A stretch of 2,860 nucleotides of DNA from Escherichia coli. Lineage in GTDB: Bacteria > Pseudomonadota > Gammaproteobacteria > Enterobacterales > Enterobacteriaceae. Location: assembly GCF_003334785.1 (NCBI RefSeq), contig NZ_QOWV01000055.1, one strand, 5' to 3'. The notes below the pieces were generated by a model. It had not been told where the DNA came from and ran no database searches. It saw only the letters and a program-made list of their open reading frames with translations. Position numbers and translations under genes: made by a program. Position 1 is the first letter of the stretch; the number at the start of each line of letters is the position of its first letter. This document shows, piece after piece, positions 959 to 2,765 of this stretch.

Positions 959-986
959 TTGACAGACAGGCTACATTGCATACGAT
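959..986 (+). promoter_or_regulatory. Candidate sigma70-like promoter (TTGACA-N16-TACGAT)
   Basis: Perfect -35 hexamer TTGACA at 959-964, a 16-nt spacer, then TACGAT at 981-986 (4 of 6 matches to TATAAT). Prediction by eye only; -10-like hexamers are common by chance. Confidence 0.3.
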
Positions 987-1049
987 TTATGAAGAAAAAG
1001 ACAGCAAATATGGAGGTTATAGCGGAGAATACCCTACGAAATTCCTATG

Positions 1050-1100: not shown

Positions 1101-1303
1101 GGAGCGTGGCGATGACGAACTGTTGCATGTGCAGAGGAGAATGCACCCGGAAGCACCAGAATCATCCAGAAAGGCAGAACGATTACGCATCAAACCAGGA
1201 GACAGCAATATCAAGGTAATATACTGATTTAAAATGAATTTACAGCAATACATAAAAACATTTTTTACTTAAAGGAGACAGATGCGCTGAAGAGAGTGCA
1301 GGT

Positions 1304-1319
1304 ATTTTTATATAAAAAT
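1304..1319. repeat. Perfect 16-bp AT-only palindrome ATTTTTATATAAAAAT
   Basis: The sequence 1304-1319 equals its own reverse complement. It sits in the AT-rich block about 280 bp upstream of the CDS start. Function unknown. Confidence 0.5.
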
Positions 1320-1540
1320 GAGAAGTTTACGGGATGTGTATCCGGCACACTATGACCGGAGAATATCAGTCAAGCTTAAAAAGACAATAAATACAGTGAG
1401 TTAAATACACAGAGAAAACGTAGTATCAGAGGGTACATCTTACAACAGAGACTGAATTTCCGGTTTTTCATAACCGGCGCATTCCGGAAAGTGCAGGCGG
1501 CCCGGAGGTTTTCTGACGCCACTACCTGGTAGATTGTTCT

Positions 1541-1553
1541 GTACATCATGTAC
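1541..1553. repeat. Inverted repeat GTACAT-C-ATGTAC (6-1-6), operator-like
   Basis: Perfect 6-bp arms around a single central C, 48 nt upstream of GTG 1602. A second, CCTGG-centred inverted repeat CTACC-T-GGTAG lies at 1522-1532. Short inverted repeats of this size are expected by chance, so this is a sequence fact with uncertain function. Confidence 0.4.
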
Positions 1554-1601
1554 GGAGGTTTTTGTTTGCTTTTTTAAAATCTGCAAATGTGAGAAAAGCA
1601 G

Positions 1602-2765
1602 GTGAGGTGTATTGTGGGAAAGGAACTGGATGATATCTGCACCAGCTGTCCGTATATCGATGCTGTAAAACGGCACAAACAACAGCTCGGTGCCATAGAG
1701 GAATATACACAGTGGTTAAAAAAAGAACCACGGGCATCTTATTTTTTTCTGTTCCAGCTGTATACCCGCATTCACAATACATTTTTCTCCCAAAAGCAAC
1801 AACTCCCGTTCACTCCCGGTGGCACTCACTGCCCGGAACCTGATGTCACCCTTCGGGACTTAACGCTTTCCCCTGGCTACCACAGTGATTATGCCCCTCA
1901 ACCCATTCCGGAGATGGACAGTTCTGCTGTTGTTCCACCAACTAATGAAAACACCTCGCCTCCGGAAGATACTCCCGACAACACTCCGGCCGGAGGCAAT
2001 ACCGGACAAGCGGAAAAGACCAGAAACGCAGGACTCACACCCATTCCTGAAAAACGTTCAGGAATGCCCCCGGAACATCTGCGGTTTGCCACGGGGTTTC
2101 CATCGCAACCGAAGATTGCCGGTCCCAGAGAAAAGCCGATGCGCACCGTGCATCCGGATAAAATCTACCGTGAAATTATATGGTTCTGCTCCAGTTACCT
2201 GCTGAAATCCGGACCAGAGGCTACGAGGACGATTATCAACTCAGTATTCTCTGAATGGGCCAGCATAAACAATGATTACCCCTCCCCCTTTTCGTGGGTG
2301 GACAGCAGGGACAGTGAACAGTGTGACTGGTTATGGAACGCCATGCAGGTCCGGTGTGTGGGAACCCCGCTGAATCCCCTTACCCCGGAGCAGAAATACT
2401 GGTTTGCCTGCGCCACGTTTGATAACTGGGAGGGCTGGAATGAGCAACAGGTACAGTTTTTACTGGAAAGTAATCCCAGACGGAACAGAGCGAAGTTTAC
2501 GCAGGTCTCCTTCCAGGCCCCCAGGATTCAGCATAAAGCGATTCTTCTTGATGAGCTGAAAAGTGCCCGGGAGCAACAAAAAAGGCGTGATGAACGTGCT
2601 GATGGTTCCGTCCCTCTGAAACTGTCCGGAAAAATCCACAAACAGCTTGAAAGTATTGCCCGAAGTCGTGGTGTCCTCCCAAAAAAACTGCTGAATGAAA
2701 TGATTGAGCAGGCGTACCATGATTTGGTGGCAACCAGGCAGAACAGCCAAATCGATTCCAGATAA
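1602..2765 (+). CDS. Hypothetical protein, 387 aa (383 aa if the GTG at 1614 is the true start). By eye it has four parts: an N-terminal segment with a CxxC motif, a Pro/Thr/Asn-rich low-complexity linker, a Trp-rich central region, and a C-terminal ribbon-helix-helix-like motif. Family not recognised.
   Basis: Longest ORF in the window (1164 nt), stop TAA at 2763-2765, with a strong intrinsic terminator about 30 nt downstream. The sequence reads like a real protein rather than an off-frame translation. The frame opens after TGA 1590-1592; there is no in-frame ATG before codon 105 (1914), so a GTG start is inferred. GAGGT at 1604-1608 lies 5 nt before the GTG at 1614. Low-complexity linker roughly aa 91-186 (nt ~1872-2159). 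Trp-rich region aa ~190-300 (8 Trp, 4 Cys). C-terminal aa ~336-375 (nt ~2607-2726), SVPLKLSGKIHKQLESIARSRGVLPKKLLNEMIEQAYHDL, fits a strand / helix / Gly turn / helix pattern. Confidence 0.75.
   Translation: MRCIVGKELDDICTSCPYIDAVKRHKQQLGAIEEYTQWLKKEPRASYFFLFQLYTRIHNTFFSQKQQLPFTPGGTHCPEPDVTLRDLTLSPGYHSDYAPQPIPEMDSSAVVPPTNENTSPPEDTPDNTPAGGNTGQAEKTRNAGLTPIPEKRSGMPPEHLRFATGFPSQPKIAGPREKPMRTVHPDKIYREIIWFCSSYLLKSGPEATRTIINSVFSEWASINNDYPSPFSWVDSRDSEQCDWLWNAMQVRCVGTPLNPLTPEQKYWFACATFDNWEGWNEQQVQFLLESNPRRNRAKFTQVSFQAPRIQHKAILLDELKSAREQQKRRDERADGSVPLKLSGKIHKQLESIARSRGVLPKKLLNEMIEQAYHDLVATRQNSQIDSR
1604..1608 (+). promoter_or_regulatory. Putative Shine-Dalgarno (GAGGT) for the GTG at 1614
   Basis: GAGGT matches the core of the AGGAGGU consensus and sits 5 nt upstream of the in-frame GTG at 1614. 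The GTG at 1602, which the ORF track uses, has no SD at a workable spacing. Confidence 0.3.

Follow-up and report, generated by a model that had tools for sequence, protein, structure and literature searches.

About one in seven E. coli genes starts at GTG. The gene described here resembles the E. coli genes whose GTG start is led by a Shine-Dalgarno sequence: its GTG is positioned 6 nt past a GAGG core, and its N-terminus is conserved in homologues. The reading frame opens just 7 codons upstream of this GTG. Compared with the Shine-Dalgarno-led GTG genes, the sole oddity is an ATG-TGA pair, polymorphic between TGA and TGG, located 22 nt upstream of the start. In ClpB, IF2, and CheA, an internal start gives rise to a second isoform. 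The gene shares with them an in-frame ATG at a domain boundary, but here the internal ATG is not accompanied by a conserved ribosome-binding site.

The protein product can be compared with the Arc/MetJ/CopG superfamily of ribbon-helix-helix proteins. TraY of the F plasmid is a tandem ribbon-helix-helix protein, and phased tandem repeats are common as operators of ribbon-helix-helix proteins. The C-terminal 40 or so residues of the protein are modelled as a strand and two helices, as in the superfamily, and a phased tandem repeat is present upstream of the gene as a candidate site. However, unlike ribbon-helix-helix proteins, the protein lacks sequence matches of this kind in Pfam, NCBIfam, and the PDB, is far larger, with an N-terminal hairpin and a disordered linker, and contains a tryptophan-rich helical domain of about 150 residues without a known relative.

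The gene is located in a stretch of 2860 bases of E. coli DNA, hereafter the window (Table 1). It is very probably an ordinary gene that starts at GTG 1614 by means of the ribosome-binding sequence GAGGTG and encodes 383 residues, with codons 1–100 translated and ATG 1914 internal. The GTG 1614 start is already known from the RefSeq annotation WP_000514100.1. A literature search found nothing about this gene.

Table 1 Features of the window discussed in the text, with the evidence for each.
Feature	Position	Strand	Evidence or remark
Sigma-70-like site TTGACA-16-TACGAT	959..986	+	Consensus scan; sole + strand site upstream of the gene
Tandem direct repeat CTACG-N6-CTATG	1034..1049	+	11-bp period; operator-like candidate
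Terminator-like hairpin with T-rich tail	1537..1576 (hairpin 1537-1557)	+	About 40 nt before the start codon
ATG-TGA start-stop pair in the frame of the gene	1587..1592	+	TGA closes the frame upstream; 22 nt before the start
Alternative GTG, 387 aa	1602..1604	+	Judged not to be the start
Shine-Dalgarno sequence GAGGTG	1604..1609	+	Six consecutive pairs with the 3' tail of 16S rRNA
GTG, most likely translation start	1614..1616	+	Best Shine-Dalgarno sequence; paralogue comparison; starts of distant homologues
Protein-coding gene	1614..2765	+	383 codons and TAA; ORF list; RefSeq WP_000514100.1, hypothetical protein, on an identical locus
Conserved N-terminal module, residues 18-56	1665..1781	+	Homologue identity, AlphaFold, dN/dS
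Linker, residues 62-147	1797..2054	+	Variable length, poorly conserved, predicted disordered, pLDDT <50
GGAG and first in-frame ATG	1910..1916	+	Judged not to be a start
All-helical C-terminal domain, residues 181-383	2154..2762	+	Conserved; AlphaFold model

Genomic context and distribution

The window is a chromosomal segment of many E. coli strains, in which it occurs with 100% identity, and 1948 of 5426 complete E. coli genomes contain at least 80% of it. At least 1000 public contigs encode exactly the same 383-residue protein sequence. Strain L37 carries the segment within an island of the CP4-44/CP4-57 type. The segment is bordered on the 5' side by IS100 and remnants of the IS21 family, and the IS100 directly 5' of the window is intact. 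The 3' side carries a YeeP-type GTPase pseudogene, a dynamin-family gene, RdcB, a patatin-like gene, and DUF932, as well as an antirestriction gene, yeeS, yeeT, and cbeA/cbtA. Within the window, positions 78–514 are a remnant of an IS21-family element at the istA/istB junction, which is 88% identical to IS21 and annotated as two pseudogene fragments.

A gene for a YeeP/YfjP-type GTPase is positioned downstream on the same strand at every locus with enough flanking sequence. It is the immediate next gene except in locus L007, where an IS21 fragment and unrelated genes lie in between. Genes of the AlpA and YagK/YfjJ types are located upstream. The GTPase gene adjoining the gene in the window begins at ATG 2849, and its copy in strain L37 contains a frameshift. 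Between the stop codon of the gene and this ATG, the sequence forms a terminator-like hairpin followed by a T-run (2805–2830).

The divergence among the paralogues is mosaic. When window positions 1614–2762 are compared with loci L005, L007, and L008, synonymous divergence is 0.18–1.1 in codons 6–60 and 0.09–0.17 in the C-terminal domain, a pattern suggestive of intragenic recombination.

Conservation within the first 100 codons

Relatives of the protein were sought by a protein search of 5.8 billion proteins and a profile search of 1.84 billion representatives. The protein search identified full-length relatives of 364–372 aa with 27–32% identity in Citrobacter koseri, Cronobacter sakazakii, and metagenomes. 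The profile search extends the family to about 20% identity, with members from other Enterobacterales. The relatives align from their own N-termini in both alignments. The neighbours of the protein in AFDB50 are all named "Uncharacterized protein" and come from Enterobacterales. The protein belongs to an uncharacterised island family of Enterobacterales.

In comparison with 16 distant homologues, residues 18–56 are conserved at the same level as the C-terminal domain: the mean identity is 29% and the mean BLOSUM62 score 1.37 in the N-terminal module, against 30–33% and 1.45–1.57 in the C-terminal domain. The module contains the motif W34-L-K-K-x-x-R40-A-x-x-F-F-L-F (residues 34–47, nt 1713–1754), located well 5' of ATG 1914. 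Its residues W34 (1713–1715) and R40 (1731–1733) are invariant in all 20 sequences of the alignment. AlphaFold2, supplied with the 20-sequence alignment, predicts that residues 13–62 form a helical hairpin (pLDDT about 90). Among four E. coli paralogues, the dN/dS of codons 6–60 is 0.13–0.65 and below 1 in six of six pairs, being just moderately below 1 in some of them, for example 0.65 between the window and L007. The least conserved part of the protein is found around codon 105: residues 57–148, which include that encoded by ATG 1914, have 6–8% identity to the distant homologues.

The initial annotation left the true N-terminus, and the translation of the first 100 or so codons, uncertain, and proposed an alignment of homologues as a check. 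Such an alignment reveals conservation within residues 1–104, in support of the long form, and conservation does not begin near codon 105. Since distant relatives retain part of the sequence encoded by the first 100 codons, these codons are judged to be translated. Judged by sequence conservation and the predicted fold, codons 1–100 are demonstrably coding and the long form is confirmed. The doubt over the N-terminus stands in so far as the start codon could not be fixed from the raw sequence alone, and falls for the translation of codons 1 to about 100, of which homologues conserve about 18–56.

Choice of the start codon

The frame opens after TGA 1590–1592 and offers in-frame GTGs at 1602 and 1614, as initially annotated; every coordinate of that description proved accurate. 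There is no ATG, GTG, or TTG in frame between GTG 1614 and ATG 1914. With GTG 1602 as codon 1, this ATG is codon 105; in the 383-residue protein, it encodes residue 101. The only in-frame codons of interest between the start candidates are non-canonical, such as ATT 1611, CTG 1626, and similar ones. An ATG would be missing near the 5' end because the gene starts at GTG 1614 behind a strong ribosome-binding site. Methionine makes up about 2.8% of E. coli residues, and (0.972)^99 is about 0.06. A run of about 100 codons without methionine is therefore statistically unremarkable, being expected in roughly 6% of cases. The fold of the start region (1530–1660) is likewise unremarkable in comparison with shuffled sequences (z −1.38).

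We infer that translation initiates at GTG 1614. The Shine-Dalgarno sequence of the start had been rated as modest, which does not hold for this codon: the duplex of GAGGTG with 16S rRNA has an energy of −11.2 kcal/mol, within the top 1.1% of window positions, and its GAGG ends 6 nt before the GTG. The site has the canonical arrangement of a Shine-Dalgarno-led start, in which sequence complementary to 16S rRNA is positioned 5–10 nt ahead of the start codon. Downstream of GTG 1614, the protein is conserved. The stretch upstream of it is unconstrained as coding sequence, since it contains an indel or is replaced by unrelated sequence in paralogues. The protein would then begin with the sequence GKELDDICTSCPY..., with or without Met.

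Distant homologues begin at a corresponding position. At six distant loci for which the DNA was read, the gene begins with an ATG 1–7 codons past the opening of the frame. The alignment includes four of these six proteins; their start coincides with the aligned position or, in P0035 and P0037, is located 5' of the conserved module. The ATG starts of distant homologues fall within about two codons of the 1614 position. In paralogue L007, the frame is disrupted by a 16-nt duplication right after the GTG (L007 positions 5990–6030). It is recovered through an ATG contained in the duplicated copy, so that the protein again begins just before L-D-D-I-C.

The other GTG, at 1602, is the first canonical start codon in the open frame and could give rise to a protein of 387 residues. 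It is an improbable start, as its duplex with 16S rRNA reaches −3.7 kcal/mol, about the median of window positions, and the codon overlaps the Shine-Dalgarno sequence of GTG 1614. The paralogues also speak against it. Loci L005 and L006, which have 77% protein identity, lack 5 nt between the two GTGs, and the equivalent of 1602 is out of frame, while the equivalent of 1614 is still GTG. An indel that is not a multiple of three indicates that the stretch is not coding. In L008 (72% identity), the sequence upstream is unrelated and an ATG is located exactly at the equivalent of 1614. The four extra residues that would be added from 1602 are without counterpart in most homologues. GTG 1602 might conceivably act as a minor start.

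Initiation at ATG 1914 can be imagined in two forms. The more extreme one, that only a short protein is made and the first 300 nt, open by chance, serve as an untranslated leader, agrees with ATG 1914 being the first ATG of the frame and having GGAG ahead of it. We nevertheless consider it extremely improbable. The GGAG (1910–1913) abuts the ATG with zero spacing, as initially noted, and has a duplex energy of −5.4 kcal/mol; paralogues have ATGATG at the equivalent position behind C-rich sequence, without a Shine-Dalgarno sequence. The frame of every homologue is open and has its start near the aligned N-terminus, the motif of residues 34–47 is conserved at an overall identity of 20–31%, and the helices of the N-terminal module are predicted with confidence. 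In the other form, the full-length protein from GTG 1614 is accompanied by a shorter isoform from ATG 1914 that lacks the N-terminal hairpin. ATG 1914 is located at a domain boundary, inside the predicted disordered linker, and each of the four E. coli paralogues compared has a methionine at this place in the linker, where three of them read ATGATG. However, distant homologues do not have a methionine there, and neither in the window nor in any of the paralogues does this ATG have a conserved ribosome-binding site of its own or a usably spaced Shine-Dalgarno sequence. A second isoform is therefore unlikely. Initiation at GTG 1614 remains our preferred reading.

Start-region alleles and public annotation

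The ATG-TGA pair upstream of the gene differs between E. coli alleles. Alleles other than that of the window have TGG in place of TGA 1590, and their frame is open to the ATG 9 codons upstream of the GTG. The TGA and TGG alleles are about equally common in E. coli, as exact matches to a 51-mer spanning the site number 955 for the window (TGA) allele and 988 for the TGG allele in 1975 records. ATG 1587 is not preceded by a Shine-Dalgarno sequence (−0.8 kcal/mol). The opening of the frame to this ATG may result in a slightly longer N-terminus in the TGG alleles, not in the window. The start common to both alleles is GTG 1614.

The NCBI pipeline places the start at the ATG in two of three TGG loci (L010 and L012), and at the GTG in the third (L009). 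The start regions of L009 and L012 differ at a single base, some 40 nt 5' of that ATG. The public forms of the protein are inconsistent, with lengths of 383 aa and 391/392 aa; UniProt contains the 392-aa form.

Structure of the C-terminal domain

The all-helical C-terminal domain is predicted with a pLDDT of 84–96 for most of residues 181–380. The score dips to 72–81 at residues 291–310, to 74 at residues 331–340, and to 62 for the last few residues. Residues of about 333–370 (nt 2610–2723) resemble a ribbon-helix-helix fold, and the last 40 or so residues (VPLKLSGKIHKQLESIARSRGVLPKKLLNEMIEQAY) have the corresponding pattern of a hydrophobic strand followed by two helices. We modelled a fused dimer from two copies of residues 300–383 joined by a glycine-serine linker. 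The model contains the strand-helix-helix arrangement twice (E34–38/H40–53/H57–81 and E143–147/H149–162/H166–192), with a pLDDT of 57–81 over the blocks containing these elements. The top matches of the fused model in a Foldseek comparison with the PDB are chains of the F-plasmid relaxosome, which are non-significant (E≥1.5).

Sequence-profile searches of Pfam, NCBIfam, PADLOC, and the PDB do not place the protein in the ribbon-helix-helix superfamily. In Pfam, the protein has no match at E≤10, and 20 members of its family have none at E≤0.001. NCBIfam and PADLOC give no matches, and the PDB search returned nothing at E≤10. The only two matches in PHROGs both have E>0.05. No solved structure has a significant match to the C-terminal domain. 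From the modelled fold, we speculate that the protein may be a ribbon-helix-helix DNA binder.

Candidate upstream control region

The approximately 1.1 kb upstream of the gene contain no conserved ORF and are 80–98% identical among the paralogues. A consensus scan found no sigma-70 promoter in 1480–1600, which agrees with the initial annotation. The candidate promoter at 959–986 is about 630 nt before the start codon, and neither of its hexamers varies among the leaders of five E. coli paralogues, even in the diverged L008. The transcription of the gene probably originates far upstream, with 959–986 as the candidate promoter suggested by the sequence. Promoter scans of the distant loci yielded no more sites than shuffled sequences, and none that could be placed by conservation across lineages. 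The block 850–1200 is 88–98% identical between paralogues, the coding regions of which are about 80% identical. An ORF at 959–1219 (86 aa) was considered as an unannotated gene and rejected, as L007 carries a 2-nt indel in it and its frame stops early in L008. A small RNA extending from the 959–986 promoter to an A/T-rich hairpin at about 1053–1090 was also dismissed, its fold being no more stable than those of shuffled sequences (z −0.87). The window has no Rfam match at E≤1.

The tandem repeat downstream of the candidate promoter belongs to the pattern YTACG-N6-YTAYG. All nine loci checked have this pattern on the + strand upstream of the homologous gene, and a count over both strands of 189 kb found it at no other place. 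The 10 hits compare with about 1.4 expected, or 0.03 expected per window, statistics that are indicative only because the pattern was derived from the same sequences. Copies are located at L002 5846–5861, L004 5850–5865, L013 1615–1630, and L014 5858–5884. The repeat is the sole upstream DNA similarity between lineages detected by blastn, and for this reason it looks like an operator. It precedes the ATG by 130–155 nt in distant loci, and the start by 571–599 nt in the E. coli group. Two copies of a 17-nt direct repeat, GTTTTTATATGCTTTTT (1083–1099) and GTTTTTGTTTGCTTTTT (1558–1574), flank about 475 nt that are missing from the distant loci. Their position on both sides of the extra sequence suggests that the gene was separated from its control region by an insertion long ago. 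Terminator-like hairpins at 1283–1300 and 1537–1557 fall within this extra stretch.

The terminator-like hairpin ahead of the gene (1537–1576) is kept with base changes in L005, L007, and L008. It might serve as an attenuator or mark where a transcript from further upstream ends. Another element, at window positions 1272–1310, reads AAGGAGACAG-ATG-CGC-TGA and forms a two-codon mini-ORF after a perfect Shine-Dalgarno sequence. The mini-ORF overlaps a terminator-like hairpin with a T-run (1283–1300). L008 keeps this hairpin, not the ATG.

Discussion

In the mechanism that we propose, the ribosome would be set at GTG 1614 by the GAGGTG at 1604–1609. The 383-residue product would begin with a helical hairpin, formed by residues of about 13–62, followed by a disordered linker that begins within the first 100 codons. 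ATG 1914 would be an internal methionine codon of the linker. The question of the start site is of small importance, but its answer fixes the N-terminus of a widespread hypothetical protein. It also exposes the inconsistency of the public annotation, in which near-identical start regions are assigned proteins of 383 and 391/392 aa.

Of more use than the start-site question are the side observations. We speculate, with considerable doubt, that the protein is the founding member of an undescribed regulator family of CP4-44/CP4-57-type islands, a dimeric binder of the ribbon-helix-helix type that recognizes the upstream YTACG repeats and thereby controls the operon. The operon would begin with the gene of the regulator itself and that of the YeeP-like GTPase. 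The N-terminal hairpin would be a separate module for regulation or interaction, joined to the rest of the protein by the disordered linker. The orphan family, found beside a YeeP-type GTPase and a conserved repeat array, provides a testable handle on the regulation of very common cryptic islands.
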